A stretch of 64,000 bases of DNA from an uncultured delta proteobacterium (GTDB lineage Bacteria; Myxococcota_A; Polyangia; Palsa-1104), in the NCBI GenBank assembly GCA_963785725.1, contig CAWAWS010000017.1:32001-96000 (forward strand), in the 5' to 3' direction. Positions 11,201 to 32,842 of the stretch are shown here, piece by piece. A program made the translations under genes and the position numbers. The stretch's first letter is position 1; each line of letters opens with the position of its first letter. The notes beneath the pieces were generated by a model. It was not told the DNA's origin, did not search any database, and worked only from the letters and a program-made list of their open reading frames with translations.

Positions 11201-12769
11201 GCGAAAGCAGCCGCCCGACACGAGGATCTCGCCGCCCATGGCCTCGTTCGCCAGCCGCTGCGCCACCTGCGCCGTTTGGCCGAGCAGCTCGTACTGAAAG
11301 CGCGCCGCGTCCGAGCCTTCGGCGCCGCGCGTGACCAGCGCCGTGCCGCGCGACAGGCCCAGCGCCAGCGTCAACGGCGGCGTCAGATCGCGCGAGATGC
11401 CGTCGAGCGCGTCGATGAGCGCGCGCGCCAGCTCGACCGCGCGCGCCGCGTCGTCCTCGGTGCCGACCGGCAGGCCGATGACGTAGGTGAAGCCGCGATC
11501 GTCGAGCCGATCGGGATGCGCCTGATGCTTGTAGGCGACGTGCTCGGTCACGCGGAGAAAGTCGAGCAAGGCTTCGCGGGCGCGCGCCTCGCCCATGTTG
11601 CGCCGCAAGGTCGGCAGGCCCGCGAGCACGCCTTCGACGACGAGCACCGGCTTGCGCTCGGCCGGCTGCATGAGCTGGTCGCGTGCGCCGGCGCTGGGCC
11701 CGGTCTTGCCGATCGTCGGTCGCGCCTGCCGCGTCGGCGTCGGCGTCGCCACGGCCACGCGCTGGGCGGCCGGCGAATCGGGCGCCGTCATGAGGCCGTG
11801 CGGCAGCGCCGGCCCGTTGCGCTCGGCCTCGGGGATGACGAGCGCCAAGAACGACGCCATCGTCCCCGACTCGTAGATCTGCCCATCCTTCGACGACAGC
11901 GCGAAGAAGAATTGACCGAGCGCCCGATGCAGATCGCGCGCCGTCTGATAGCGATCGTCCGGCTTACGCTGTAAGCACTTGAGGATGATCGCCTCCAGCT
12001 CGCTCGGGATCGCCGGATCGACCTCGCTCGGCTTCGGCACCTGCGCGTTCTTGATGGCGTTGATCGCCTGCCGGCCCTTCAAGTTGCCGAAGAGGCTGCG
12101 CGCGCAGCACAGCTCCCACAGGACGATCCCCGTCGAGAAGATGTCGGCGCGCGGATCGACGGGCAGCCCTTGCGCCTGCTCCGGCGACATATAGGCGAAC
12201 TTGCCTTTGACGACGCCTTCTTCCTCTTTGACGTGGCGAGCGCGGGCGATGCCGAAGTCGACGATCTTGACCATCCCGTCCCACGAGACGATCACGTTCT
12301 GCGGCGAGACGTCGCGATGGACGATGCCGAAGGGCTCGCCGTATTCGTCGGTCTTGCGGTGCGCGTAGTCGAGCCCTTTGGCGACCTGCTGCGCGAGATA
12401 GGCGCACAAACCGAACGGAATACGCGCGTTGGCCTCGACGGCGGCGTTGAGGACGCGCAAGAGATCGACGCCCTCGACGTGCTCCATGGCCAAGAAATAG
12501 GTCGGTCCGATTTGGCCATAACCGAACGTCTGCACGATGTTCGGATGGTTCAAATTGACGGCGACCTTGGCCTCGTCCTCGAACATCTGGCGGAACTGCG
12601 GCGTCTCCGCCAGCGACGGATGGATCTTCTTGATGACGAGGATCTTGGCCAGGCCCTGCGCCAACGGCTCGCGGGCCAGGAAGAGCTCGGCCATGCCGCC
12701 GGCGCCTAGGCGACGAATCAGCTGATATTTTCCGAAGGTGTCCACGGTCGCGGTTAACGTAATTGGCAA
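8279..12769 (-). CDS. multidomain Ser/Thr kinase + class III cyclase-like + STAND/AAA ATPase + TPR protein
   Basis: [25 protein letters not shown] cyclase-like start; GDGGVGK, VVVVEDMH, GGNPFY; C-terminal TPRs; start codon uncertain. Confidence 0.88.
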   Translation of the reverse strand: MPITLTATVDTFGKYQLIRRLGAGGMAELFLAREPLAQGLAKILVIKKIHPSLAETPQFRQMFEDEAKVAVNLNHPNIVQTFGYGQIGPTYFLAMEHVEGVDLLRVLNAAVEANARIPFGLCAYLAQQVAKGLDYAHRKTDEYGEPFGIVHRDVSPQNVIVSWDGMVKIVDFGIARARHVKEEEGVVKGKFAYMSPEQAQGLPVDPRADIFSTGIVLWELCCARSLFGNLKGRQAINAIKNAQVPKPSEVDPAIPSELEAIILKCLQRKPDDRYQTARDLHRALGQFFFALSSKDGQIYESGTMASFLALVIPEAERNGPALPHGLMTAPDSPAAQRVAVATPTPTRQARPTIGKTGPSAGARDQLMQPAERKPVLVVEGVLAGLPTLRRNMGEARAREALLDFLRVTEHVAYKHQAHPDRLDDRGFTYVIGLPVGTEDDAARAVELARALIDALDGISRDLTPPLTLALGLSRGTALVTRGAEGSDAARFQYELLGQTAQVAQRLANEAMGGEILVSGGCFRGARADWNFEQLDAITLPPDLDTGAGRDNDLEPAGPGRAKVYRLRGPRPRAERLADHAGVRRVLGRDLELAALGDAHRAVVEQRRARYVLLLGDGGVGKATIVDAFRNKLDRTTHLILRAVGRPSLRDTPYALVADLTRDLFELTEEAEPREVKKRIDTTVQRLFPATTPAEERDARQVSEALGALLGLRASGAEELDPQERRHRLYAALRKLQTRLAEERVLVVVVEDMHQADSQSFEILVQLVRDPIERPLLGIATARHDERTDQLSQTDKVMTILVGELGLREREELVRSRFADPADAHALGTQILDRAGGNPFYINEMVDSLVERGTLQPNVDGLLRWVKRDELLLIPTTVEAVVAARLDRLPDDERDTIRRAALLGRIFRVEDLQALTGGGPPERLTRALVRLAARGLIAPASARSDVFGRGPGAYSFRNLITKEVAYEGLPADTRALLHSVAADRLRRSAAYRAGGDDARMGEHLLAAGDRTGAGRALVSAGAYARDNASNADAFTLLSRALELLPADAHDERYDAHGEREQILRGWGKRPAQLREVHYMRKHAAATPGKEGRRRESQAFARLGLLYLDIGRHAAARRELDRALALARQAEDVLCESEALRLLATLLMNVGKNIEALEVALSALHVLGTPSESATNSARDQLLARAQALNAVGNVHVHTGHLRESVSSYAEALVIYRRLSARRYEAATLNNMGWVFVGLGEHEEALGHYKRSLRLAQELGDRAGIGVKLGNIGQTYAELGDFERARRYLEKAIEIHTALADQPGLADALISLAQVSLREGKVGEADEQLERGLELASETRNRYQEIRALVYLAFCRLERGGAPEAALELAQSATRLAREAEIANGEVYGLCAEALALGRAGRHQEALSRSTQAVTLFDSGRDVDTPEEVLFIHARAAKAAGATSVAHEALRRAHAEVVRKARRLRDEGWRTRYLGAPPARDIVAAARKAGLDEPDLRA

Positions 12770-14628: not shown

Positions 14629-15243
14629 CTACTGCGGCGTGATCTTCAGGTTGTCGAAGTGCAGCTCCGCTTCCCAGTCGTTGAACGCGAAGAAGCGATG
14701 GCCCGCGCCTTCGAGCGGATGGCGATCGTCGTAGCTGAGGAACGGCTTGCCGTCGATTTGCCAGTCGATGTGGCCGCCCTTGCGCGCGATGCGCCAGTGA
14801 TAATGCCGCCCGAGCTCGACGCGCACGTCGCTGCGCGTCTTGCGATCGTTGCCGTGCTCGTCGAGACGCGCGATGGCCGAGATCTGGTTGTGCCAGCCGC
14901 CGAAGATGAAGACGTAGCTCGTCGCCGTGTACGAGACGGTCTGCGCCCAGCTCTGACCGTCGCCCCAAATTTCCACCTTCAAGTCGCCGGCGGGATCGTT
15001 GGACCAGCAGTCGAGCTCGATGACGGCGTCTTCGGGGATGGGCTGCGCCAGCCACAGCGGCCGGTTGTAGCCGTGGTCGATCGTCACGGCGCCGTCGACG
15101 ATGCGCCACTTGCCGCCGCCGGGCGCGATCCAGCCCGAGCCGATGTCGGCGCGATCGAAGTTGTCGGACGACGGGCCGGCCGGCGGCAGCTTCTCCACCT
15201 TGCAGGCTCCGAGCAGCAACGCGAGCGCCAACCAACGCACCAT
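14629..15243 (-). CDS. lipoprotein, probable concanavalin A-like beta-sandwich
   Basis: Lipobox LGAC; DNFDR..W..G.WRIVDG start and LHFDNLKI end typical of ConA-like folds. Confidence 0.7.
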   Translation of the reverse strand: MVRWLALALLLGACKVEKLPPAGPSSDNFDRADIGSGWIAPGGGKWRIVDGAVTIDHGYNRPLWLAQPIPEDAVIELDCWSNDPAGDLKVEIWGDGQSWAQTVSYTATSYVFIFGGWHNQISAIARLDEHGNDRKTRSDVRVELGRHYHWRIARKGGHIDWQIDGKPFLSYDDRHPLEGAGHRFFAFNDWEAELHFDNLKITPQ

Positions 15244-15279: not shown

Positions 15280-16644
15280 TCAGGCGAGCTGAGAAAAACG
15301 CGCGGCGGCGGCGGCGGCGGTCGGGCGCGCGGCGGCGTCGTCGGCGAGCAGCGCACGCAATAATTCCACGAGCGGCGCGGCTTTGGCGCCGAGCGCGGCC
15401 GTCACTGCCGGCGGCAGCGTGCCCGACCAGCGCGCGTCGCCGCGCAGGAGCGCCGCGCGATCGCCGAGCCAGCTGGCCAGCGCCGCCGTGCCGGTGACGA
15501 GCTCGACGGCGATGACGCCCGCCGCGTAGACGTCGGCCGCCGGCGACAAGACGCCGCGGCGCTGCTCGGGCGCCATGTACGCCAGTGTGCCGCGCGCGGC
15601 GCGATCGGCCGCCGCCGTGCCGTCGGCCAGCTGCGCCAGCCCGAAGTCGCCGAGCACCAGCTCGGCGTCCTCGGCCACGTCGCGAAAGAGCAGGTTCGCC
15701 GGCTTGACGTCGCCGTGCACGACGCCGTGCGCGTGCACCGCCGCCAGCGTCGACAGCAGCTCGGCCGCGCGCGCGATGGCCGACGGCGGCGACAGCGGCG
15801 ACGAGCGCAGCCGCGCCGCCAGCGACCCGCCCGCGCACAGCTCCATCGCCAACAGCTGCCGCTCTTCGTCGAGATCGTAGATGGCGACGACGCCGGGATG
15901 ATGAATCGCCGCCGCCACGCGCGCTTCGAGCCAGGCACGCGCTTGCTCGAGCCCGCGTTGCCGCGCGTGCGGATGCAGGATCTTGAGCGCCAAATCGCGG
16001 TCGAGCTCGGCGTCGCGCGCGACGTAGACGGCGCCCGACGCGCCGCGGCCGAGCTCGCGCACCAGCCGCCAGCGGCCGAAGTCGGCGCCGCCTTCGGGCA
16101 GGCCGGCCAGCGTCGGCGCCGCCAGCACCGGCGCGGCGACCGGCGGCAGGCCGTGTGACAGCCGGTCGGCGCGGCCGCGCGCCTGCGGATAGTCGAGATC
16201 GACGGCCAGGATGCGCTCGAGCTGCCGGCGCGCCTCGACCTCGTCGCCGGTGCGCTCGGCGGCGTCGGCGAGCAGGAAGCGGGCGCGCAAGGCGTGCTCG
16301 CGCACCTCGGCCAGCCGCTCGAGCAGCGGTCGCGCGGTCGCGTGCTCCAGCCGATCGCACAACAGCTCCGCCAGCCGCGCCGCGACGCCGTGATCTTCCG
16401 GTTTGGCGGCCACGAAGCGGCTCAAGATGTCGATGGCCGTATGCTCGCGCCCCGTCGACAACAAGCGCTGCACGGCGGCCCAGAACTCGCGATCGCCGAC
16501 GCCGATCTTGCCTTCGTCGTTGGGATCGCTGAGGCGGCCGAGCAGGTTGCGCAGGAACGCCTCCTCGGCCGGCATCTCGGCTTCGGGCTCGACGGTGGGC
16601 TTGGGCGCGCCGAACGCATCCTTGAGCCAGCCGACGAACGACAT
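15280..16644 (-). CDS. Ser/Thr protein kinase with N-terminal TPR-like region
   Basis: ATG 16644 overlaps upstream stop (TGATG); LGRGASGAV, LALK, HGDVKPAN, DFG, GTLAYMAPE. Confidence 0.88.
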   Translation of the reverse strand: MSFVGWLKDAFGAPKPTVEPEAEMPAEEAFLRNLLGRLSDPNDEGKIGVGDREFWAAVQRLLSTGREHTAIDILSRFVAAKPEDHGVAARLAELLCDRLEHATARPLLERLAEVREHALRARFLLADAAERTGDEVEARRQLERILAVDLDYPQARGRADRLSHGLPPVAAPVLAAPTLAGLPEGGADFGRWRLVRELGRGASGAVYVARDAELDRDLALKILHPHARQRGLEQARAWLEARVAAAIHHPGVVAIYDLDEERQLLAMELCAGGSLAARLRSSPLSPPSAIARAAELLSTLAAVHAHGVVHGDVKPANLLFRDVAEDAELVLGDFGLAQLADGTAAADRAARGTLAYMAPEQRRGVLSPAADVYAAGVIAVELVTGTAALASWLGDRAALLRGDARWSGTLPPAVTAALGAKAAPLVELLRALLADDAAARPTAAAAAARFSQLA

Positions 16645-17870
16645 CAGGCGACCTCCAAGCGCTGCTCGCCGAGCTCGATGACGTCGCCGCGAATGAGCTG
16701 CACGCCGCTGGCCGCGTGCACGCCGTTCAAGTACAAGAGGCGCCCGCCGATGGGCGACAAGCGCGGACGACCGTCGATGAAGTAGAGCTCGCCCACGCCT
16801 TCGACGTCGAGCGCGCCCGAAGAAGCCGACAGTCGCAGGCCGCGATCGAGGCCGCGCGTGACCTCGAGGTGCAGCGTCTCGCCGTCGACGCGGTAGGCGA
16901 TCGCGCATAATTCGCCGAGGCCGATCTCGCCCGCTTCGCCGAGCGGCAAGGTGCCGGCGATGCGCACGCCCGCCAGCGTCGTGCCGTTCTTGGAGTCGTG
17001 GTCGACGAGGGCGAAGCGGCCGTCGGCGGCGAGGATGATGACGTCGGCGTGGCGGCGCGAGATGCCGGCGTCGCGCAAGGGCAGGGCGCAGCCGGCGTCG
17101 CGGCCGAGGCCGAGCGGGAAGGCGCCGACGTAGCGCCGCTCGCGCGCTTGTCCGGCGGCGCCGGCGCGCAGGCCGAGCGCGCCGTCGGCGATGAGCTTGG
17201 CCTCGAGCTCCTCGCGCAGTCGCTGATAGGACGCGCGATCGCGGGTCAATTCGGCCAGGCGGTCGGCGGACACCGTCGTCTTCGCCGGCAGCGCCGTCTC
17301 GGCGCACTGGCGGATGGCCTCCAGCGCGCGATCGCGCTCGCCCGCGGCCAGCGCCAGCTTGTACTCCTCGAACGACTCGTGGACGCGCTCTTCGCGCTTG
17401 CGCCGCTGCTCCTCGCGCGCCAACACCGACTCGAGGCGCTCGACGTCGCCGGCGCGCTGATAGGCTTCGGCCGCCTGCAATTCCTCGCCGATGAACTCGT
17501 GGCACTCGCCGGCGCCGCCGTGATCGCCGACGTCGCCGAAGAGCTGCGCCGCCTCGCGCACGACCTGCTTCTCGGGCTCGCCGACGATCGACGACACGCG
17601 CGCCCAGCCGAACAGCGCCCGAGCGATGCGTTTGCGCGCCTGCTGACCGTCGGGCTCGGTCGGGTCGGTCCAGCGGATGGCGGCGCGCAATTCGTGCAGC
17701 TTGGCCGCCGGCGACGGCGCGCGCTCGGCGCGCAGGAGGTGCATCTCGGCCACTTTGACGCGCTCGCCGGCCAAGGCATAGGCGCGGGCGGCCTCGGCGT
17801 AGTCGCCGGCGGCCTCGGCAGCGACGGCGCGCCGGAAGTCGGCCGAGAACATGCGCTTGAAGAAAGTCAC
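16644..17870 (-). CDS. TPR-like repeat + FHA domain protein
   Basis: GTG 17870 (VTFFKRMF); helical repeats; FHA motifs LGR, SRRH, SKNGT; a second degenerate beta-rich FHA-like segment at the C-terminus. Confidence 0.8.
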   Translation of the reverse strand: MTFFKRMFSADFRRAVAAEAAGDYAEAARAYALAGERVKVAEMHLLRAERAPSPAAKLHELRAAIRWTDPTEPDGQQARKRIARALFGWARVSSIVGEPEKQVVREAAQLFGDVGDHGGAGECHEFIGEELQAAEAYQRAGDVERLESVLAREEQRRKREERVHESFEEYKLALAAGERDRALEAIRQCAETALPAKTTVSADRLAELTRDRASYQRLREELEAKLIADGALGLRAGAAGQARERRYVGAFPLGLGRDAGCALPLRDAGISRRHADVIILAADGRFALVDHDSKNGTTLAGVRIAGTLPLGEAGEIGLGELCAIAYRVDGETLHLEVTRGLDRGLRLSASSGALDVEGVGELYFIDGRPRLSPIGGRLLYLNGVHAASGVQLIRGDVIELGEQRLEVA

Positions 17871-17878
17871 GGCGCCAC

Positions 17879-17891
17879 AGCATACCGCGTT
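17879..17891 (-). promoter_or_regulatory. AACGCGGTATGCT promoter motif, copy 1
   Basis: Contains TATGCT -10-like hexamer ending 8 nt before GTG 17870; identical to 21202-21214. Confidence 0.6.
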
Positions 17892-17924
17892 GAACGCAAG
17901 GTGCAGCCACCGTAAGATAAAGTC

Positions 17925-19437
17925 GTGCTCGAACCCGTCGCCCTGAACCAGACCCGGTTCAACGTGCCCGGCATCGCCCCCGACAACCGCGGTGTCGTGC
18001 TCGGCAAGCAGGGCGCGCTCTTGTTCGCGTCGGTCGATCGCCTGGTCGGCTTCTTTCGCATCTTTTGTGACGAGTCGTCGATGGACGATCTGTTGCCGAA
18101 GCTGAAGATCCACCAGCTGCGCACGCCGCTCATGGCGCGCGAGTTCCTCGTGCTGTTCGCGGCGTCGAGCTCGTATCTGCTCGATCGCGCGGCGCGAATC
18201 GCCGGCCTCCTCGGAGGGCTGCCCTTCACCGGCTCGGGCAAGCACTTCGTGAAGTATCGCGACACGCAGTCGCCGCTCGGCTTCGACGCGACGGCGCTGT
18301 CGACGGAGCCGGCCGACTTCGTGCTCTACGCGGACACGTTTACGCAGGGCTATCAGAAGGTCAAAGACGTGCCGTTCGAGCAGCTCGTCTTTCAGCTGTC
18401 ACCGCGGCGTTTGCCGGGCAGCGCCCGACGACGATCTGCAGGACCGCGAGCTGCTCTGGCTGACCGTTCGTCCCGGCCTCGGGCGCGCGATTTTGACCTA
18501 TTTGTGGCGCAATCGCGTGCGCGCCGAGGCCACGTTCGTGCAGCCGGCGCAGACGGCGGCGGGCGCGGGCAGCTTCGGGCAGGGCGCGTCGTTCGTGCTC
18601 ATTCGCGCGCACGAGCTGCCGGCGCGCATGCTGACGCTGTTTGCCGCCGTGCCCGGCGTCGAGATCTTCCGCCCCGTCGCCGAGAACGTCGTCGTGCAGG
18701 TCGGCTTTCGGCATCCGCTGCGGCTCGAGTCGTGCGCGTCGATCTTCGACAAAGAGCGCTTCTACGTGTTCTCGGGCACGCGCGACGCCGTCGACGTCTT
18801 GATGGCGCCGCCGCCGCTGGTGCCGGCGACCGACCTCATCGGCGGCGGCTTCGATTTGGGCGAGCGGCCGGCGCCGATCGAGCAGATGCCGCGCGAGCCC
18901 GACAAGCTCGAAGTGCAGCTCAAGCTCGTGCCCGCGCAGTCGGCCCGCCGCCGCGTGACCGCGACGCTGGTGTCGTGGGCGCACGCCGACCGGCTGCGCA
19001 AGCTGGTCTACGCGCTGCCGCCGACGATGCTGGCGACCTATCGCGTGGCCGCCTTGACCGAAGGGCTGTTCGTCGTCGGCGAGCAGGGCATCGACGGCCT
19101 GCCCATCGGCGACCTGTTTCAGGAGGCGGCGCCGTCGATCTTCGTGCCGCTGGGCATGGAGTTTCTGCCGCGCGTCGGCGCCGCCGTGCTCACCGATCAT
19201 GTCGGCGGCGTCAACGGTCGCTACGTCGTGTTCCCGCATCATGGCCGCCCGCTCGCGCTCGAGCACGGCGCGTTCGAGCCGCTCGGCCGGCGCGCGCTGG
19301 CGCGGCTCGACGTCGAGGTGCGCACGCGCGACGTGCGCCTGCCGCCGCCGCGCGCGACGACGCCGGCGACGGTCGTCAACGAAGAGCTGTCGGCGCTGCC
19401 GCTGTGGGGATTCCAAGGAAATCCCAAGGTCGAATGA
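17925..19437 (+). CDS. uncharacterised ~503-aa protein of the MoxR-vWA cluster (one apparent 1-bp insertion near 18425)
   Basis: Protein-like frame 17925-~18425; deleting one C from gccc gives GSADDDLQDRELLWL, in frame with ORF 18493-19437. Confidence 0.7.
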
Positions 19438-20000
19438 GCCGCGGCGCCGTCGTCACGATCGCCGTCATCCTCGTCGTCGTGTCGGCCGCCTCGGCGCACG
19501 CCGAGACCGGCTGGGCCGGCTCGGTGCGGCTCGGCGTCGGCGCGCCGCTCGATTACGCGCGCGCCGGCCAAGCCAACGTCGACATGGCGCTCAATATCCA
19601 CCTCATCATCCGGCCCGGCGCTTACGACGAAACGTGGGGCGGCGGCCCGTTCATCGACGCGCACACGCTCGGCTTCTCGCGCCACGACATCACCGCCGGC
19701 GCCGGCGTCTCGACGCCCGACTACATGGGCCTGTTCGCCGGCGGGCTGCGCATCGGCGCCGGCTACCGCTGGCTCAGCGACGACCGCACCGGCGGCATCG
19801 TGCACACGACGTTCGTCTTCGGCTTCCGCATCCCAATCAAGAACCACGAAGAGCTGGTCCTCGGCATCTACGCCGACGCGCGCGTGCTCCTCGAGCATCA
19901 CCCGACGAGCGAGCTGACGTCGGGCCTCGAGATCGATCCCGTCGGCATCTTGGCGGCGCTGTTTCAAGGCACGAAATGGGAACCGAAGACTAAGCCATGA
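19434..20000 (+). CDS. exported protein, possible small outer-membrane beta-barrel
   Basis: ATGA overlaps at both ends; signal peptide …SAHA-E; alternating amphipathic strands (GLRIGAGYRW, LVLGIYADARV). Confidence 0.65.
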   Translation: MSRGAVVTIAVILVVVSAASAHAETGWAGSVRLGVGAPLDYARAGQANVDMALNIHLIIRPGAYDETWGGGPFIDAHTLGFSRHDITAGAGVSTPDYMGLFAGGLRIGAGYRWLSDDRTGGIVHTTFVFGFRIPIKNHEELVLGIYADARVLLEHHPTSELTSGLEIDPVGILAALFQGTKWEPKTKP

Positions 20001-21136
20001 AGTTCGCGCCCGCGCGCTGGCTGCATAACTTCGTCCTGCCGCTGATCGCCGGCGGCGACGTGCGCGTGGCGATGGTCTTGGGCGCGCGCGAGCTCCGGCA
20101 GCTCAAGGACAGCGACTTCGACAACGACGAGAACGGCCAGCGCATCGGCGAAGCGCGCCACGCCATCGTCTCCGAGCTGCTCATCTCGCCGCCCGAGCCC
20201 GAGCTCGACGAAGACGCGCTGCGCTTGGCGGCGGCCATGCAAAACCTGCTGTTTCTGCTGCATCCGGGCACGGCCGCGCTCGGCGTGACGCGGCGCCGGC
20301 TGCGCGCGGTCTCGGCCTACACCGCCGAGCTGGCGACGCTGCATCTGCCCGAAGCCGACGAGGAGGGCGCGCGCATCTTGGCCGCCCGTCACTCGATCTT
20401 GCACCACCTGTTCGACCTCGGTCGCGACGACGTGCGCGTCAGCTTTTGGGCCGGCAAGCGCGAATTCCGCGGCGCCGAGCCGCCGCCGCGCCTGCTCAAA
20501 TGGGCCGACGTGCGCCGCGTGCGCGAGGAGCGCTGGCGCATCACCGTCGCCGGCGAGGCGATGGCCGATCCGCTGTACAAGCCGATCGTGGCCGCGCTCT
20601 TGGCCTCGTCGCCGCTGACCGATCTGTTCGAGCCGGCGCGCCTCGAGCCGCGCTTCGACCTGTTGCATCTGGCGCGCTGGCTCCGGCAGCCGTCGCTGGC
20701 GCGCGCCGTCGCCGACCGCTGGCTGTCGGCCGGTCTGCCGCAAGTCGCCGGCGCCTACACGGCGGCGCTGATGGCGCTGTACAACGAAAAAGACACGCGG
20801 GCGCGATTGGCCGCGCGCACGGCGACGTCGTTCGCCGCGCACGTGCAGCTCCTGCATCTGCTCGGCCGCCGCGCGCCGATGGGCGAGCGCGAGCACCTGC
20901 TCGATCTGCAAGGCCTCGTGCAGGCGCAGCCGGGCTTGCGCGACTTCTACGGCCTGTTCGCTGCCGCCCAGCGCGTCGGCCTCGGCCGTCCGACCGACGT
21001 CGCCCGCGATCCGCGCCTCGCGGCCGAGGTCGACCGCTACGCCGCCGCCTGTGCCACGCTCGTCGGCCACAATCGCCTGCTCGAGCTCATCGGCGTCATG
21101 GGCCGCGGCCTCGGCCAGCTGCAGCTCATGCCCTAG
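19997..21136 (+). CDS. uncharacterised helical protein of the MoxR-vWA cluster
   Basis: 379-aa ORF with normal composition, translationally coupled to the upstream gene. Confidence 0.75.
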   Translation: MKFAPARWLHNFVLPLIAGGDVRVAMVLGARELRQLKDSDFDNDENGQRIGEARHAIVSELLISPPEPELDEDALRLAAAMQNLLFLLHPGTAALGVTRRRLRAVSAYTAELATLHLPEADEEGARILAARHSILHHLFDLGRDDVRVSFWAGKREFRGAEPPPRLLKWADVRRVREERWRITVAGEAMADPLYKPIVAALLASSPLTDLFEPARLEPRFDLLHLARWLRQPSLARAVADRWLSAGLPQVAGAYTAALMALYNEKDTRARLAARTATSFAAHVQLLHLLGRRAPMGEREHLLDLQGLVQAQPGLRDFYGLFAAAQRVGLGRPTDVARDPRLAAEVDRYAAACATLVGHNRLLELIGVMGRGLGQLQLMP

Positions 21137-21201
21137 CTAGCCGCAAATCTTAGTCCCGCACGGGCTTCACAAGTGTTGCCAAGTCGCGTCTCGCGACGAA
21201 A

Positions 21202-21214
21202 AACGCGGTATGCT
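21202..21214 (+). promoter_or_regulatory. AACGCGGTATGCT promoter motif, copy 2
   Basis: TATGCT ends 8 nt before ATG 21223; identical to the minus-strand copy at 17879-17891. Confidence 0.6.
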
Positions 21215-21222
21215 ATGCGGCA

Positions 21223-22421
<1,199 letters not shown>

Positions 22422-22425
<4 letters not shown>

Positions 22426-22763
22426 AAGTGATCGTCTTCGACGACGTCTTGTGCGGCCGCGCCCGCGAATACGAGGTGGCCAACCTCGACTTGCATTTTT
22501 ATGCGCACGCCGACGAAGCCGTGGCCATCGTCGCGCGCGAAAAGCCCGACGTCGTGCTCATGGACTATTCGATGGACGCGAAACACTCCGGCGAAGACGC
22601 CATTCGCGCCTTACGTTCAGCAGGGATGCCGGGCGGCGGCAAGATCGTCGCCATCTCCTCCGATCCACGCTCGAACGAACGCATGCTGACGGCCGGCGCC
22701 GACGACGCGATCCCGAAGACGCACGTAAAAGGTTATTTGTCTCGACTATCGAAGTTGAAATGA
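22422..22763 (+). CDS. single-domain response regulator (receiver)
   Basis: IVFDD, VVLMD phospho-acceptor, AISS, AGADDAIPK; ATGA overlap with MoxR. Confidence 0.85.
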
Positions 22764-22776
22764 ATCGATATTCGTC

Positions 22777-24258
22777 ATGATCGCAGCCGAAAAACGTCAT
22801 TCGCATTTGGCGCGTCAAGTCGGGACGCTGGCGCTCAGCCATGTGCGCACGACGAACCCGATGGCGGCCGTGCGCGCCGCGGCCTGGGCGAACACGATGG
22901 GCCGCCTCGGCGTGCATTTGCCGCTGTTCGTCGTGCACGACGTCGGCCTCTTGTTGACGGCGCCGCGCGGCGCCGGCGGCGTGCAGCTCGGCCCGCGCGA
23001 GCCGCTCTTGGCCGCCGTCGGCCTCGGCGACGAAGCGCGCGGCTTACTGCGGCAATATGGCGCGTTATTGGCGACGATCGCGGCCTCGGAGGTCGTCGAG
23101 AAGGCGACGTCGTGGCGGCTGCGCGACGATCTGGTCTCGGTGCTGCTGACGAAGATCTTGGGCGACCTCTATCATCGCTGGCAAGAGCCGACCAAGAGTG
23201 TCGGCGTCGAAGAGCTGCCGCTCGATCCGCAGACCTACGCCGATGCCGACTTGGCGCAGCACTTTCGCGACTTCGACGCCGCGCCCATCATCGGCTTTCT
23301 GCGCTTCTTCGCGTCGCAGCAGCTGCATGTGTATACGTCGCTCGAGCAGATCGATCTCGACACGTTGCGCCTGCTCGGCGTCTTCAACGGCGGCGCCAAC
23401 ATGGGCGGCGGCGTCGAGGCGGCGGCGATCGATCTCGTCGATCTGTTCGGCGTCTTTCAGTCGGCGGAGGCGAACGACGTCGTCAACTTCTCGCTCGAGC
23501 TGTTGCCGTCGGTCTTGGAGACGAAGCGCGCGTCGGGCGTGCAGACGTTCGCCGTCGACGGTTACGCGGCCATCGAACGGCGCGGCAACTTGGATTCGCT
23601 GATGCTGTCCGAGTTCGCTTACGACGACGACCTGTTCGAGCGCAAAGTCATCGACGACGAGCTCTACTATTACGGCCACGAAAAGCAGCGCGAAGAAGAG
23701 CGCCGGCTGCAATACATCCTCGTCGACAGCTCGCCGTCGATGCGCGGCGTGCGCCAAGTCTTCGCGCGCGGCTTGGCGCTGACGCTGGCCAAGAAGCTGT
23801 CGCTCGAAGGCGATGAAGTGTGGCTGCGCTTCTTCGATTCGCGGCTATACGACACGCAAAAGGTGCAGCACGGCGATTTGGCGGCGCCTTATTTGTTGTG
23901 CTTCAAGTCGGAGCGTGGACGCAATTACGCCAAAGTGTTTCGCCAGCTGGCGCTCGAGTTGCAGCGTCTGCGGCGCGAAGATCGGCGCCAGCTCGTCGTC
24001 TACATTCTCACGCACGGGCAGTGCCATATCCCCGTCGAAGTCGTGCAGCAAATGCGACGCGAGGCCTATTTGTACGGCATTTTCATCCTGCCGTCGTCCG
24101 ACGTCAGCCTCGAATATCTCGACCTCTTGCATCGCCATCAAATCGTCGACGAGCAGACGCTGCAGAGCCGCAATCGCCGGCGCGACAAGGCGCTCGACAT
24201 CATCAACGACGCGGGCGGCCGTCCGCCCGATCCCCAAAAGAAGGCAGTGGCGAAATGA
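22777..24258 (+). CDS. vWA-domain protein (MoxR partner)
   Basis: GYAAIERRGNLDSLMLSEFAYDDD..ELYYY pre-vWA segment; ILVDSSPSMRG MIDAS; LRFFD; YILTHG. Confidence 0.85.
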   Translation: MIAAEKRHSHLARQVGTLALSHVRTTNPMAAVRAAAWANTMGRLGVHLPLFVVHDVGLLLTAPRGAGGVQLGPREPLLAAVGLGDEARGLLRQYGALLATIAASEVVEKATSWRLRDDLVSVLLTKILGDLYHRWQEPTKSVGVEELPLDPQTYADADLAQHFRDFDAAPIIGFLRFFASQQLHVYTSLEQIDLDTLRLLGVFNGGANMGGGVEAAAIDLVDLFGVFQSAEANDVVNFSLELLPSVLETKRASGVQTFAVDGYAAIERRGNLDSLMLSEFAYDDDLFERKVIDDELYYYGHEKQREEERRLQYILVDSSPSMRGVRQVFARGLALTLAKKLSLEGDEVWLRFFDSRLYDTQKVQHGDLAAPYLLCFKSERGRNYAKVFRQLALELQRLRREDRRQLVVYILTHGQCHIPVEVVQQMRREAYLYGIFILPSSDVSLEYLDLLHRHQIVDEQTLQSRNRRRDKALDIINDAGGRPPDPQKKAVAK

Positions 24259-24707
24259 TATTCTTACTTTTGCTCGGCCTGTTTTCTTATGACGAGGTTT
24301 TGCATACCGACATCATCGTGCACGCCAAGATCCGCTGGTCGAAGCTCGACGGCGGCGAGCGCGTGTTCGTCGAGATCGCCGGCGGCGAAGCCAAGCGCGT
24401 CAATCCCGGCTGGTCGCCCGATCCGCAGCCGATCGCCTACGACATCGCGCGCGAACGCGATCTGTCGCGCTCGCTGAAGGCCGCGCGTTTGCCGGCGTCG
24501 ACCGGGCACCCGTCGGAGGCGCCCGACGACCGCACGCTCGAAGTCATCGTCGAGGACGCCAAAGGCTGGCACTCTGCCGGCGTCTGGTCGCTGTCGGTCA
24601 AGGCCTGGCAAAAAGGCCGCCTCGGCTCGATCTACGACGCGCTCGAGCCGCTCTTGAAAGTGCAGCCCGACCTCTTCGGCACCGGCACCAAAGGCGGACA
24701 TCCGTGA
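24255..24707 (+). CDS. small putative exported hypothetical protein
   Basis: ATGA overlap with vWA stop; MIFLLLLGLFS hydrophobic start. Confidence 0.6.
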   Translation: MIFLLLLGLFSYDEVLHTDIIVHAKIRWSKLDGGERVFVEIAGGEAKRVNPGWSPDPQPIAYDIARERDLSRSLKAARLPASTGHPSEAPDDRTLEVIVEDAKGWHSAGVWSLSVKAWQKGRLGSIYDALEPLLKVQPDLFGTGTKGGHP

Positions 24708-25315
24708 GGAGGGTGGTGCTGGTGTTGGGCGCGCTGTTGTTGATCGGCGCCGACAACCCGCTGCCGTATCGCATTTGGTGGTCGTTCCCGAACGACGACG
24801 ACACGGCCATCGAAGTCGACGATCCCGATTTGTCGGAGTCGACGTACACCTCGCGCTGGCAGTTCGCGGTCGCCATGCAAAAGTGCGACGTGCGTAAGTC
24901 GAAGCGGCTGGCGCTGCACAAAGACGGCACGCCGGTGCGCGAGATTCGCGTCGAATCGCTCGAGCCCGACGGTTCGACGCGCGCGACCGCTCGCTGCGTC
25001 ATGGCGCTCAAAGACTGGCGCACGCGCATCGGCAAACCGCTCGTCGTGCGGCTCGAGGACGAATTGGACGCGCACGCGGCGTTCCTCATGCCGCGCCATT
25101 TCCCGGGCTCGGGGCCGTTCGACGCCGGCGTCGTTCCCGAGGCCAAGCCGCTCAAAGTCGACGTCAAGCCGCAAAAGCCGCGAGCAGCGGAGCCCAAGCC
25201 GCAAAAAGCCGACGTGAAGCCGCAGCCGCTCGACGCCGCGCCGCCGAAAGCGGACGCGAAGCCGGCCACGCCCGCGACGCCCACGACGATGATCGAAGGG
25301 CACGCCGCGCCATGA
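24704..25315 (+). CDS. exported hypothetical protein with Pro/Lys/Ala-rich tail
   Basis: GTGA overlap; signal peptide MRRVVLVLGALLLIGA; repeated DVKPQ/KPQK. Confidence 0.65.
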   Translation: MRRVVLVLGALLLIGADNPLPYRIWWSFPNDDDTAIEVDDPDLSESTYTSRWQFAVAMQKCDVRKSKRLALHKDGTPVREIRVESLEPDGSTRATARCVMALKDWRTRIGKPLVVRLEDELDAHAAFLMPRHFPGSGPFDAGVVPEAKPLKVDVKPQKPRAAEPKPQKADVKPQPLDAAPPKADAKPATPATPTTMIEGHAAP

Positions 25316-27159
25316 TCGAAGCCAATGCTCAGCTCTTGGCGCGCGCGCAAGGCCTGCTCGCCGCCAATCGCGCCGCCGAAGCCGAGCGGCTGTTCCGCCA
25401 GCTGCTGCAGAACACGCACGTCATCGACTTCGAATACGACGAGTGGCTCAAGGGCATCGCCGAGGCCTATCGCGCGCTCGGCCGCACCCGCGAAGCCGGC
25501 TACGTCTACCTCTATTTGCACGCCTTCGATCGCGCGGCCGAGATGTTCCCGGCCGCGACGGCGCCGGTCGACGCGGCGCGCGTGCGCGAATTGGAAGCGC
25601 GTCGCGCCGGCGGCGAGCCGGCCGCGCGCTTGTACGGCGAGGCCGCGCGCGGTTACGCCGAAGCCGGCCGCCACGTGCTGTCGGCGATCGCCTTCGCGCA
25701 AGGCAACCAGCCGCGCGACGAACGTCGCGCTTGGGAGCGCGTCTTGCGCGATCCGCGGCTGCGCGCCCATCCCTACGAAGAGGCGCTCGTGCAGTTCAAC
25801 TTGGGCGTGGCCGCGACGCGCGACGGCGACAAAGAGGGCGGCAATCGCCACCTCGTCTCCGCGCAGCGCCTGCTCGAGGAGGTCGCCGACGAATTCGAGA
25901 CCCACGGCGAGCGCCACCGCGCCTTCGACTGCTACTGCATCCTGCTCAAGCTCGGCAAAGACTCGGGCAGCTTCGAGAACCTCGCCGAAGGCTACATCAA
26001 CTGCATCCGCGTCCTCAAAGAGGACAATTTAAAGTTTTATGTGCTGCAATATTATGAGGATTTTCTTCGCATAGCGCTGGAACGCGAGGAATATCATGCA
26101 GCTGCCACCGTATTCCGCGAAGCGGCCGATTATGCGCGTCGCGTCGGCCTCGTTTATGACCGCGGTTATCTGAAGCGCGCGGCCGAGACGTGGTGGAAAG
26201 CGGCCGAGAAGAACGAGCGCGACGGCGGCCCGGTCGAGATCACCGAGAACGCCTATTTGGCGGCGATCGACGCCTACAACTCGGTCGGCGATTTCTATCA
26301 CGTGCGCGAGTCGTACAAGCAGGTGACGAAGCTGGCGCTGGGCGAGAAGAAGCAAAAGCGCTACTCGGACGTCGTCGCGCGCTACGCCGAGGTGTGGCAA
26401 GAGGCGATCGACGCCGCGCCGTTCCCCGATTATTTGCGGCAGCAGCACGCCTATCCCGAGATTTGGTACCTCGATTTGATCGAGTGGGAGCTCGACGGCG
26501 ATCACCGCGAGGTCTGCGCGTCGATGGTCGGCGACACGCGCTATGCCGACATCATTCGCCGGCGGGCGCTCAACGTCCTGTTCACGCACTTCGACGCGCG
26601 GCCGCGCGACGGCGCCGAGCTCGACGCGCACACGCTGGCGCAAGTGGCGCAAGACATGGGGCAGCTCGGCGCCTACGCGGCGCTCATGCCGCTCGAACGC
26701 CTAGCGACGCACGCCAATCCGGAAGTGCGCCGCGGCGTGATGCGCGCGCTCAAGCACCTCTATTTCAAGCGCACGTTCAACATGATCACGCGCGGCCTGC
26801 GCGACGAAGCGCCGGCCGTGCGGCAGGCGGCGCTGGAAGCGATGGCGGCGCTGCATTTCCCGCACGCGTTCGATCCGCTGATGCGCATCTTCCGCGAGCA
26901 CGACGACGCGCGCGTCAAAGAGGTCGCGCTCGAGAGCATCGGCCGCATCTCGAGCCTGGAAGCGGGCGAGTTCCTCGTCGAAGTGCTGCGCTACGAGTCG
27001 GAGCCGCTGCGGCACGTGGCGCGCCGCCAGCTGGCATCGTTCGACAACCCGGACATCTTCCCCATCTTGCGCAAGCACCTCGAGCTCGAGACGAACGGCC
27101 CGGCGCGCCAAGCGCTCGAGCAGATCGTCCGCGGCTCGACCAGCCGCGCGCCCGCTTAG
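25312..27159 (+). CDS. TPR (SNAP-like) + HEAT repeat protein
   Basis: ATGA overlap; N-terminal helical repeats; HEAT repeats (HANPEVRRGV, DEAPAVRQAA, DDARVKEVA). Confidence 0.82.
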   Translation: MIEANAQLLARAQGLLAANRAAEAERLFRQLLQNTHVIDFEYDEWLKGIAEAYRALGRTREAGYVYLYLHAFDRAAEMFPAATAPVDAARVRELEARRAGGEPAARLYGEAARGYAEAGRHVLSAIAFAQGNQPRDERRAWERVLRDPRLRAHPYEEALVQFNLGVAATRDGDKEGGNRHLVSAQRLLEEVADEFETHGERHRAFDCYCILLKLGKDSGSFENLAEGYINCIRVLKEDNLKFYVLQYYEDFLRIALEREEYHAAATVFREAADYARRVGLVYDRGYLKRAAETWWKAAEKNERDGGPVEITENAYLAAIDAYNSVGDFYHVRESYKQVTKLALGEKKQKRYSDVVARYAEVWQEAIDAAPFPDYLRQQHAYPEIWYLDLIEWELDGDHREVCASMVGDTRYADIIRRRALNVLFTHFDARPRDGAELDAHTLAQVAQDMGQLGAYAALMPLERLATHANPEVRRGVMRALKHLYFKRTFNMITRGLRDEAPAVRQAALEAMAALHFPHAFDPLMRIFREHDDARVKEVALESIGRISSLEAGEFLVEVLRYESEPLRHVARRQLASFDNPDIFPILRKHLELETNGPARQALEQIVRGSTSRAPA

Positions 27160-27692: not shown

Positions 27693-28979
27693 GTGACTGG
27701 GGATGCCGCGGCGGTCGATTATGGGGCGCTGGCTCGCGAGCTGACCGCGACCGGCATCCTGTCCGACCCGTGGATCGACGGTCGGCCGCGCTTCGCCACC
27801 GCGCCGCTCGTGTTGCCGCGTCGCCGCGCCGGCGCGCTGGCCACCGCCGCCGAAGACCTGGCCGCGGCGTGGGACGAGGCCGCGCGCCTGTGCCTGGCCG
27901 ACGACGCGCTCGTCCACCACTTCTTCCCCGCGCTGACGCCGTTTCAACGGCTCATGTGGACCGCTGCCGGCGGCGCCTGGCACGGCATCGCCCGCGCCGA
28001 CGTCTTCGACACCGACGACGGCCCGCGAATCTGCGAGCTGAACTGCGACACGCCGAGCGGCGAAGCCGAAGCCGTGCTCCTCAACGCCGCGGTCGCGCGC
28101 CGTCATCCGGCGCTCGTCGATCCCAACGCCGACTTGGAGCGCGCGTTCGGCGACGTCGTGCTCGCCTATGCCGGCGGCCTCGATCGCGACCACGCGGCGC
28201 CGCTCACCGTCGGCATCCTCTATCCGACCGAGCTGGTCGAGGATCTGTCGATGATCCTCATCTATCGTCGCTGGCTGGAGGCGCGCGGCTGCCGCGTCGT
28301 CCTCGGCTCGCCGTTCAACCTGCGCCGCATGGGCACGCAAGCGGCCCTCTTCGACGTGCCCTGCGACGTCTTCGTGCGCCACTACAAGACCGATTGGTGG
28401 AGCGAGCGCGAGCCGGTGCGCGACGACGAGCCGCCCTTCGCAGACGCCGAGCCGCTGGCCGAGCAGCTCGGCCTCTTGACCGAGGCGACGTTGGCGCGAC
28501 GCTGCGCGGTCGTCAATCCCTTCGGCGCCGTGCTCATGCAGAACAAGCGCGTGATGGCGCTGATGTGGGAAGCGATCGAGCGCTTCTCGCCGGCGTCGCA
28601 GGCGGCCATTCGCGCTTATCTGCCGTATACGGTTCGGCTGGAGGCGCTGCCGTCGACGGCGTTGCGCGATCGCGCCGACTGGGTCGTCAAGAGCGACTAC
28701 GGCTGCGAAGGCGCCGAGGTCATCATCGGCGCCGCCGTCGACGAGAACGCCTGGAGCGACGTGCTCCGCCACGCCAAGCCCGGCCGCTTCATCGCCCAGC
28801 GCTACTTCCGCGCCCGCCTCGGCGCCGACGGCCGCTCGGTCAACTACGGCGTCTACCTCATCGGTGGCGAGGCTGCGGGCTTCTTCAGCCGCCTCGCCCA
28901 CAACGCTTGGGGCGCCACCGATTATTACGCAGTCACTGCCGCCACGCTCGTCGACGAAACGGGGGAAACGCATGAGTGA
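27693..28979 (+). CDS. glutathionylspermidine synthase-family ATP-grasp ligase (YgiC/YjfC-like, no amidase domain)
   Basis: ARADVF, ICELNCDTPSGEAE, VNPF..LMQNKR, VVKSDYGCEG. Confidence 0.85.
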   Translation: MTGDAAAVDYGALARELTATGILSDPWIDGRPRFATAPLVLPRRRAGALATAAEDLAAAWDEAARLCLADDALVHHFFPALTPFQRLMWTAAGGAWHGIARADVFDTDDGPRICELNCDTPSGEAEAVLLNAAVARRHPALVDPNADLERAFGDVVLAYAGGLDRDHAAPLTVGILYPTELVEDLSMILIYRRWLEARGCRVVLGSPFNLRRMGTQAALFDVPCDVFVRHYKTDWWSEREPVRDDEPPFADAEPLAEQLGLLTEATLARRCAVVNPFGAVLMQNKRVMALMWEAIERFSPASQAAIRAYLPYTVRLEALPSTALRDRADWVVKSDYGCEGAEVIIGAAVDENAWSDVLRHAKPGRFIAQRYFRARLGADGRSVNYGVYLIGGEAAGFFSRLAHNAWGATDYYAVTAATLVDETGETHE

Positions 28980-30495
28980 ACGAAGCTTTGGCGCGCGCTG
29001 GTGGCGTGAATCGCTGGCGACGTCGCGGTTGGCGCGCGGCGGCTTGGCGGGAACGTTCGGGCTGCTCGGCGGCGCGGCGCTGACCTTGCCCGGCTGCTTC
29101 AACTACGGCGATCCCGTTCCCGACGAATCCGCGGCGCAACAATCGGGCGACGAGATCGACACCAGCGTCGACGCGCTGCAGCTGCAGCAGCACGAAGGCT
29201 GGGACGTCGGTCAGCCGGGCGGCCAGCTGCGCTTCGCCGGCTCGTCGCTGGAGGACGTCGCCGGCACGCAAGACTGGCGCGGCGGCATGCAGCGGCTGGC
29301 GGAGACGCTGCATCCGACCGAGCCGGCGCTGCAGCCCTACTACGTGCCGACGCTGTTTCAGTCGCTGATGGGCAAAGCGGGGCAGCGGCTGCGCGCCGTC
29401 ATGCGGCCGGTTCATGACGACGACATGGATCGCGACTTCGCGCGCGGCCTGGCGCTGCGCGAGGCGTTCGCCGCCGCCGGCTGGCCGCGCGACACGGCGC
29501 TCGTCGTCGATGCGCCCGGCTCGCACGCCGTTGCGTTGGCGGCGGCGCTGGCCGATCACTTCGCGCCCGTCTTCACCTTCGGCAACTGGCCGCATCCGCG
29601 CGGCGTCGTCCCCGCGCACGAGACGCTGGCGGCGACGCTGTTTTACCTGCCCGCCTTCGCCGCCGCGCAAGACGAGCGCCCCAACGACGCGCCGCCGCTC
29701 TTCGTCCTCGACGCCAATCGCCTGGCGCCTTATCGCGACGCCGACGCCGAGTTCGACAACCGCTACTTCGTGCATCTGCCCGACGCGCGTGCGTTCGCGG
29801 CGATGGGCATCAGCCACGTCCTCTACGTCAGCGCCGACGGCTACCAAGAGCTCGACGACCTGAACGCGGCGCTCGTCGAGCTGTCGCAGAATAACGTCGA
29901 CGTGCAGATGGTGGCGCTGGGCGACTTCGTGCCCGCCGGCCAAAACGCCCCCGAGCTGGCGCAGAACGAAGGGAACGACGAGGAGACCGAAGCCGAATAC
30001 GAGAACGAAGGCGTCGGCAATCCGTCGTTCGAGGTCGGCTTTCCCTTCGCGTTCTTCTTCGACTCCTGGCCGTGGTGGCAATCGCGTCCCTGGGCGACGG
30101 CGCGCTATTGCTACGGCGGCTTTGCGCGCGGCGGCAGCTACCGCTTCTGGCGCGATCATGGCGGCTACCACGCGCCCGTCGTCGTCGCCCACGGCGGTCG
30201 CGTCGTCGGCCCGCCGAAAGTCGGCCGCATCAACGGTCTTCAGGCGCGCAGTGCGATGCGCTGGAGCCCGACGCCGCGCGCGACGATGTTCAACCCGCGT
30301 GGCCCGCTCGTGCCCGGCGCGCACCCGCGCGTCGCCGGCTTCGGCCAAGTCCCGGTGCGCGCGTCGCGCTTCGACGGTCGCGTCACCGCCGTGCGCGGCA
30401 GCGGCTTCAGCCACTACAGCCGCGCCGGCGTCCACGGCGCGACGTTCGCCCGCTCCGGCTCGATCGGCCGCGCCGGCGGCGGCTCGAGCGGCTAG
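28972..30495 (+). CDS. large putative lipoprotein with Gly/Arg/Ser-rich C-terminus
   Basis: ATG 28972 overlaps ligase end; LPGC lipobox; ends ARSGSIGRAGGGSSG. Confidence 0.72.
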   Translation: MSERSFGARWWRESLATSRLARGGLAGTFGLLGGAALTLPGCFNYGDPVPDESAAQQSGDEIDTSVDALQLQQHEGWDVGQPGGQLRFAGSSLEDVAGTQDWRGGMQRLAETLHPTEPALQPYYVPTLFQSLMGKAGQRLRAVMRPVHDDDMDRDFARGLALREAFAAAGWPRDTALVVDAPGSHAVALAAALADHFAPVFTFGNWPHPRGVVPAHETLAATLFYLPAFAAAQDERPNDAPPLFVLDANRLAPYRDADAEFDNRYFVHLPDARAFAAMGISHVLYVSADGYQELDDLNAALVELSQNNVDVQMVALGDFVPAGQNAPELAQNEGNDEETEAEYENEGVGNPSFEVGFPFAFFFDSWPWWQSRPWATARYCYGGFARGGSYRFWRDHGGYHAPVVVAHGGRVVGPPKVGRINGLQARSAMRWSPTPRATMFNPRGPLVPGAHPRVAGFGQVPVRASRFDGRVTAVRGSGFSHYSRAGVHGATFARSGSIGRAGGGSSG

Positions 30496-32803: not shown

Positions 32804-32842
32804 CGTCGTCAAAGTCTGTTCGCTTCCGGCTCGACGCACCAC

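Follow-up and report, generated by a model that had tools for sequence, protein, structure and literature searches.

A co-inherited MoxR-vWA gene set with a soluble kinase-FHA pair in Polyangia

A divergent run of 11 genes built around a MoxR AAA+ ATPase and a von Willebrand factor A (vWA) protein raises the question of which of these genes belong together, and of whether they encode a conflict system or a remodelling system. The run lies at positions 15280-27159 of a 64,000-nucleotide stretch of DNA (hereafter the window) from an uncultured delta proteobacterium of the class Polyangia (assembly GCA_963785725.1, contig CAWAWS010000017.1, positions 32,001 to 96,000). A first-pass annotation, made from the letters alone, had treated the 11 genes as one cluster with seven start/stop overlaps and arms 54 bp apart. 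We confirmed all 11 open reading frames (ORFs), and coordinate arithmetic returned the same layout, with 54 bp between the divergent arms and seven overlapping junctions (one TGATG and six 4-base ATGA/GTGA). The 11 genes are, however, not a single unit: only seven form the core, a receiver gene is optional, and three genes for exported proteins are local or family-level. The system is a genuine and conserved one that seems to have no published description; it is a variant of the MoxR-vWA ternary kind, set apart by its fixation together with a soluble kinase-FHA pair. The core genes are as follows (aa, amino acids; MIDAS, metal-ion-dependent adhesion site).

15280..16644, - strand: TPR + Ser/Thr kinase, 454 aa; Pkinase E 5.5e-36; no membrane segment
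16644..17870, - strand: helical-repeat (TPR-like) + FHA protein (TPR-FHA), 408 aa; GTG start; FHA E 1.9e-11
17925..19437, + strand: X2, ~500 aa (~503), 1513 nt; +1 frameshift near 18420-18422 in the assembly
19997..21136, + strand: U379, 379 aa; mostly helical with a beta-hairpin; no family or fold match
21223..22425, + strand: MoxR AAA+ ATPase, 400 aa; P-loop GPPGTAKS; bpMoxR E 5e-77
22777..24258, + strand: vWA protein, 493 aa; helical N-terminal region; MIDAS DxSxS intact
25312..27159, + strand: TPR-like solenoid + HEAT repeats (TPR-HEAT), 615 aa; HEAT_2 E 3e-25

Co-inheritance of the seven genes

The arrangement of these genes was compared in 88 of 95 fetched loci, since four were duplicates and three belonged to other systems; the fetched loci are at most 21 kb long and were picked around one of the genes, and several end at contig edges. 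Because 17 of the 88 hold the complete core, the cluster is not a product of chance. At least eight family-level groups retain the gene order; this is the synteny that the first-pass annotation had named as a test of its proposal, and it already refutes a chance association of the cluster. Pairs that lie within three genes of each other include X2 and U379 (43/45 loci), TPR-FHA and the kinase (27/30), U379 and MoxR (38/44), TPR-FHA and X2 (25/30), MoxR and vWA (34/41), and vWA and TPR-HEAT (47/69).

As many genomes scatter the core genes, we also ran a panel of 72 genomes chosen by vWA status (44 positive, 28 negative). X2 and U379 were found in all 44 vWA-positive genomes and in a single negative one (G017, 560 contigs), which for each of the two amounts to 45/72 panel genomes. 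Residues 1-440 of TPR-HEAT (E ≤ 1e-8) and TPR-FHA (E ≤ 1e-22) were each detected in 44/44 positive and 0/28 negative genomes, at thresholds that we set ourselves. These four genes nearly always occur once, even when scattered, and the system-negative genomes were searchable, since a lipoprotein gene that served as control was found in 25/28 of them. Five genes (vWA, X2, U379, TPR-HEAT and TPR-FHA) thus come and go as a group, to which the kinase and MoxR remain linked. A profile of the kinase N-terminal TPR region matched 32/44 system-positive genomes, in 29 of them beside TPR-FHA, and weakly 2/28 negative ones; most of the misses represent one divergent family, in whose fetched loci a kinase still stands beside TPR-FHA. 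The earlier assignment of the FHA/kinase pair to the system is supported by both patterns.

The vWA protein was found in 39/41 of the nearest genomes, 129/201 class genomes and 25/221 phylum genomes, and the phylum search gave one strong match outside the class. It is near-fixed in families f12 (34/34) and f10 (38/39) and gave no match in other families (0/15 and 0/8). The U379 profile matched 135/401 phylum genomes, three of them outside the class, in a tally that takes in one unpublished genome (G568). Titled records of relatives name Polyangia, Myxococcales or Haliangium; the restriction to the class holds for the genomes sampled. Within the panel, genomes with the system are larger (median 7.3 vs 4.35 Mb), and the window genome holds a single copy of every gene tested. 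The three U379 matches outside the class (L081 in genome G098; G207:C8:28389-29267; G441:C422:5929-6972) may be transfers or relics, L081 being a rearranged cluster with a long-branch MoxR.

Core protein lengths are narrow across homologues, and the divergence of all seven proteins tracks that of MoxR (r 0.75-0.93; 15 pairs from 6 loci), so that none of them resembles a swapped effector. Strongly hydrophobic segments are rare, KD19 ≥ 2.0 being reached by 0-3 members per alignment.

Core components and accessory genes

Pfam and NCBIfam recognised TPR with Pkinase, TPR-like repeats with FHA, a bpMoxR/RavA-like ATPase that also matches AAA_5, a receiver and HEAT repeats. Elsewhere in the right arm, X2 has a weak Pfam bpX2 match on its second half, and the five other proteins, vWA included, have no Pfam match at E ≤ 0.01. 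Catalytic residues of the kinase (K221, E240, D312, K314, N317 and D333) are invariant in 21/21 homologues. The G-R and S-R-x-H residues of the FHA domain, which serve binding of phosphothreonine (pThr), are invariant in 17/17. Farther to the left the window encodes a large kinase-cyclase-AAA-TPR protein of 1496 aa (8279-12769, - strand), and several distant loci, among them L050, L051, L090, L092 and L112, likewise have large kinases past the left arm.

The RavA-like label first given to the MoxR protein agrees with its assignment to the bpMoxR/RavA-like ATPases, but the bpMoxR match is not diagnostic, because that profile also matches 5/14 control genomes, E. coli included. Against RavA structures the match (E 6e-62) covers the AAA core only, residues 13-311, and against the RavA family model it reaches 196 bits (cut-off 681) over positions 6-302 of 498. 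In a tree of 41 rows, the 30 core MoxRs cluster together with support 100/99 and stand apart from the beta-propeller (five rows, 100/100), FtsH-type (two rows) and RavA-like (four rows) sequences; the core rows mostly sort by family, and long branches leave the order between groups unsure. The P-loop GxxxTAKS is present in 29/30 core MoxRs and is likewise not diagnostic, since it also occurs in 2/3 long RavA-like rows and in L098. One family carries a methyltransferase gene between MoxR and vWA (L061, L062, L088 and L089).

Homologues of the vWA protein are 454-542 aa long with the vWA domain at the C-terminus. The domain call holds on the DxSxS motif, kept in 41/41 homologues, though library scores all fall below cut-off and comparison with PDB sequences gave nothing real. 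Thr412 is kept in 40/41 and His413 in 41/41; vWA domains usually carry the second MIDAS Asp at the His413 position.

The X2 family comprises 643 representatives at 50% clustering (E ≤ 0.001). Its predicted fold (predicted local distance difference test, pLDDT, 82.8) has two ferredoxin-like alpha/beta units and a C-terminal half related to bpX2/fvmX7. Foldseek gave no matches at E ≤ 0.001 and VIA a best Z of 7.2, to generic ferredoxin-like units, in a search that used the whole 510-residue model and that single-domain matches may escape. Relatives carry X2 as one unbroken ORF of 475-528 aa (27/27 aligned), and the extra base near 18420-18422 is absent in five contigs from 3/4 sequencing runs compared, two of these contigs showing only 2-3 other differences in 217-242 bases; the contigs have depths of 2-6 and none is certainly of the same strain (best word share 0.35). 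Since the relatives are in frame and five contigs are without the extra base, the frameshift is probably an assembly error rather than a real lesion. A programmed frameshift is ruled out by the in-frame relatives. Loci L034 and L052 show several core-gene frameshifts in few-contig assemblies, which look like long-read errors.

U379 has a confident model (pLDDT 94.2) for which Foldseek returned no matches at E ≤ 0.001, VIA a best Z of 5.8 and ESM Atlas no usable match. TPR-HEAT homologues are 568-663 aa long, with a strongly hydrophobic segment in 1/39. ESM Atlas gave TPR/SNAP-like rows under 0.9 for TPR-HEAT residues 1-420, and the repeats of TPR-HEAT (25312-26600) and TPR-FHA (16900-17870) have weak intraflagellar-transport/WD40-solenoid (E ~1e-3) and SNAP-like matches; we regard both as leads only.

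The remaining genes of the cluster and its left-hand neighbour are listed here.

19434..20000, + strand: 188-aa protein with a signal-peptide-like N-terminus; local insertion; beside X2 in 0/45 other loci
22422..22763, + strand: lone receiver domain; optional accessory; D7, D8, D48 and K99 kept
24255..24707, + strand: 150-aa probably exported protein; family-level accessory; 9 loci, all f1; no Pfam match
24704..25315, + strand: 203-aa probably exported protein with a Pro/Lys-rich tail; family-level accessory; 12 loci, all f1; no Pfam match
14629..15243, - strand: lipoprotein, 204 aa; neighbour outside the finding; syntenic in 20 loci

The exported proteins, once counted as system parts, do not qualify: two are confined to the window's own family, f1, the only holder of both genes at 24255-25315, and the third is an insertion that is present in near-identical contigs and skipped by one relative's contig (19385-20010). 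The receiver stands directly before vWA in 9/10 loci that have it, but it was found in 1/10 further system-positive and 0/5 negative genomes, which rules it out as a core gene. Of the proposed control layer of pThr/FHA plus Asp phosphorylation, the FHA/kinase part is therefore retained and Asp phosphorylation is not a core layer.

The lipoprotein is a bystander, since it occurs in 68/72 panel genomes; its presence in so many system-negative genomes, even one of 1.8 Mb, rules it out as an eighth core gene. It has many invariant Trp, Gly, Asp and His residues with sub-threshold Pfam matches, and is an unstudied class-wide core gene in its own right. To the right of the cluster, a glutathionylspermidine-synthase-like ATP-grasp gene is followed by a gene for a ~500-aa protein with no Pfam match (27693-30495, + strand), a pair that recurs in two close relatives. 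A radical SAM gene at 31607-32842, which we take to be RlmN, lies outside the cluster and recurs near 9 loci. A link to gliding motility found no support, with GltG-like matches in 2/2 system-negative and 3/3 positive genomes and none over cut-off.

Relation to described MoxR-vWA systems

By sequence comparison we place the system outside the MoxR-vWA ternary conflict systems, as their sister lineage, because the third components of both ternary classes are missing from it and true members occur at other loci. X2 and vWA appear to be distant homologues of the FtsH-ternary parts fvmX7/bpX2 and ivWA, the vWA protein falling below membership. At E ≤ 0.5, Pfam bpX2 matched 20/27 X2 homologues and fvmX7 9/27, and the X2 profile aligned with a true fvmX7 protein at 94.1% in hhalign. 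Of the 41 vWA members, 20 matched the ivWA model (best E 6.6e-5; the protein of the window scores 15.1 bits vs a cut-off of 35) and 3 matched ivWA-helical_N, while the vWA profile aligned with a true ivWA protein at 91.6% in hhalign over 71 columns of the segment before the vWA domain. This segment and the two unknown proteins had been flagged as resembling ternary parts. The resemblance stands for the segment, if below cut-off, and for X2; it is not supported for U379, of whose 30 members none matched fvmX or bpX models, and for which fvmX6 gave no match in 5 genomes (where the control matched nowhere) and hhalign values of 2.5% and 5.5% with one SPL motif.

The simple type of FtsH ternary system, vWA-MoxR subsystem 3 of Kaur, Burroughs, Iyer and Aravind (2020; PMC7159879, section 21), is described there with a third component of two FtsH-type AAA+ domains. 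Our system shares with it the MoxR GxxxTAKS motif, a vWA domain fused to a large N-terminal helical region with weak homology to ivWA, and X2 as a homologue of fvmX7. In contrast, it is without the tandem FtsH AAA, radical SAM, fvmX2 and fvmX3 genes, its MoxR clade is separate, it has TPR-kinase, TPR-FHA, TPR-HEAT and U379 instead, and it is near-fixed in single copy. No two-domain FtsH AAA gene is present among the 11 genes, the fetched loci share no additional gene family from one family-level group to another, and a domain scan of the 11 genes found no radical SAM/NEFF1 effector or Ubl-conjugation gene; the first reading of the cluster as free of FtsH-like AAA, iSTAND and propeller genes was correct. 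True FtsH-type loci coexist elsewhere in carrier genomes. Locus L097 (5395-11876, - strand), whose genome also has the core, is a simple FtsH ternary locus with AAA, MoxR, fvmX2, fvmX3, fvmX7 and radical SAM genes, and L127 (3801-13999, + strand) encodes fvmX6, an FtsH with an intact M41 peptidase match, a 1088-aa fvmX7 fusion, MoxR and ivWA. In the same panel the ternary markers are patchy (fvmX2 in 1/73 and bpX5 in 6/73 genomes).

The third component of the beta-propeller ternary systems, subsystem 4 (section 22 of PMC7159879), is given in that section as a variable N-terminus, a membrane span, TPR and a propeller. The likenesses here are the non-diagnostic bpMoxR match, the weak bpX2 match and the absence of a conventional effector. 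The differences are that the vWA protein has no C-terminal propeller (a propeller family matched in 0/41 members), that TPR-HEAT carries HEAT repeats rather than a propeller and rarely a membrane segment, that bpX5/bpX6 loci are separate and patchy, and that the core MoxRs do not fall inside the beta-propeller clade. Loci L096 and L123-L126 are four-gene beta-propeller-class loci (MoxR, bpX5, a ~580-aa protein and bpX6); the ~580-aa protein of L123-L126 weakly matches the same pre-vWA segment.

Two further systems bear comparison. Esr, an epibiont-sensing pathway confined to one class, the Actinomycetes, is presented in the Wang et al. 2026 preprint (PMC13622651) as combining MoxR, vWA, a Ser/Thr kinase and FHA in one cluster that signals by Thr phosphorylation. 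By analogy we consider it the nearest working model: the same four domains occur together in a class-confined set, a likeness at the domain level. Unlike Esr, our kinase is without a membrane segment and an Esx link was not seen, and neither the 11 genes nor their conserved neighbours encode a surface Ig/propeller sensor, a transglutaminase or a phosphatase. RavA-ViaA of E. coli (PDB 3nbx, 6q7l) provides the closest solved ATPase and a vWA partner of similar size; however, the window MoxR is 400 rather than 498 aa long and matches over residues 13-311 only, NCBIfam gave no ViaA family match for the vWA protein, and five extra partners are co-inherited. We found no published description of the gene set, in a search whose scope left out most subscription journals and Figure 1-source data 1 of PMC7159879.

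Function of the gene set

The reading that we prefer, and to which we would give about an even chance, is that the seven genes encode a cytoplasmic, phosphorylation-gated AAA+ remodelling machine with a standing regulatory or stress function in Polyangia, and not an effector-carrying defence island. The first-pass annotation had left the choice between conflict and remodelling; remodelling fits better because the system is single-copy, vertical in pattern, constant in its lengths and without an effector slot. MoxR-vWA pairs are described in section 8 of Kaur et al. (PMC7159879) as gripping a client and remodelling it. By the same chemistry, the MoxR ring and the vWA MIDAS would grip a client peptide and alter its conformation using ATP. 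The client or scaffold may be the system's own X2, U379 and TPR-HEAT, since X2-U379 and vWA-TPR-HEAT stay adjacent in broken-up operons. With the motifs of both proteins intact, the TPR-kinase would phosphorylate Thr on itself or a partner, and TPR-FHA would read the pThr and so gate remodelling; T178 in the kinase linker (14/21) and T208 in U379 (27/30) are candidate sites. Some lineages may add the receiver before vWA as a second input.

Several observations weigh against this interpretation. The closest relatives of the system are predicted conflict systems, and Esr is a precedent for threat sensing by a MoxR-vWA-kinase-FHA set restricted to one class. Its fastest-evolving parts are U379 (29% mean identity) and TPR-FHA (35%). 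The kinase profile missed 12/44 positive genomes, and the linkage of MoxR is known from fetched loci, the panel having covered other genes. The FHA and kinase thresholds were chosen to exclude generic matches, and the panel was picked by vWA status among genomes whose kin are not independent, so that its results are patterns and not P-values. Of the ternary markers, fvmX2 undercounts FtsH-type systems, missing at least one locus (L127); genome G157 has fvmX6, fvmX7 and ivWA without an fvmX2 match.

The main rival is a fixed threat-sensing pathway like Esr, in which phage, an epibiont or a competitor would be detected inside the cell and a defence response raised through the kinase and FHA proteins; we consider this possible, though somewhat unlikely. 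It draws on the apparent homology of X2 and vWA to FtsH-ternary parts and on the Esr precedent of Thr-phosphorylation signalling (sections 8-9 of PMC13622651), and the larger genomes of carriers would fit a social, fruiting lifestyle, which suits the remodelling machine equally. The conserved set, however, is without an effector, a variable sensor, a surface propeller protein, a transglutaminase or a phosphatase, PADLOC returned only generic kinase and HEAT matches (2/11 proteins), and a single copy that is often scattered over the chromosome is unlike a defence island.

One may also suppose, more tentatively still, that domestication of a ternary-conflict relative at the root of Polyangia produced a permanent machine of seven proteins, a soluble kinase-FHA switch having replaced the FtsH or propeller component to control AAA+ assembly of a solenoid scaffold that contains U379 with its putative new fold. 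If so, the machine would control some step, particular to the class, in social life or in cell-intrinsic immunity.

A RavA-ViaA-like or metal-insertion chaperone seems doubtful. MoxR, vWA, X2, U379 and TPR-HEAT would then serve a metabolic or membrane complex, and the kinase and FHA genes would be a separate module with a shared history; RavA is indeed the best solved MoxR relative, the invariant His beside the MIDAS could indicate a different metal, and in many genomes the kinase and FHA genes are not located beside the right arm. Yet TPR-FHA shows the same pattern of presence and absence across the panel as the other parts and mostly lies near X2, no enzyme or respiratory gene is among the conserved neighbours, and MoxR falls outside the RavA-like rows of the tree. 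That the cluster is decayed or fortuitous, with X2 a pseudogene in the window genome, is very improbable, for although X2 is frameshifted in the assembly and no compared run is certainly of the same strain, gene order is kept across families and the extra base is missing from five contigs (three runs), some of which differ at just 2-3 other places.

Most MoxR-vWA ternary systems are predictions, and those that have been described are patchily distributed and contain variable parts. The phosphorylation-gated machine proposed here belongs to a system that is fixed and single-copy, with a short, stable parts list and intact catalytic motifs, and it therefore offers a clean test of remodelling targets and phospho-gating; strains for such work exist, since cultured Nannocystis species are named as sources of MoxR homologues at 81% identity. 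The gene set defines an unstudied core function of the Polyangia, which are abundant myxobacteria of soil and are commonly understood by extrapolation from Myxococcus.

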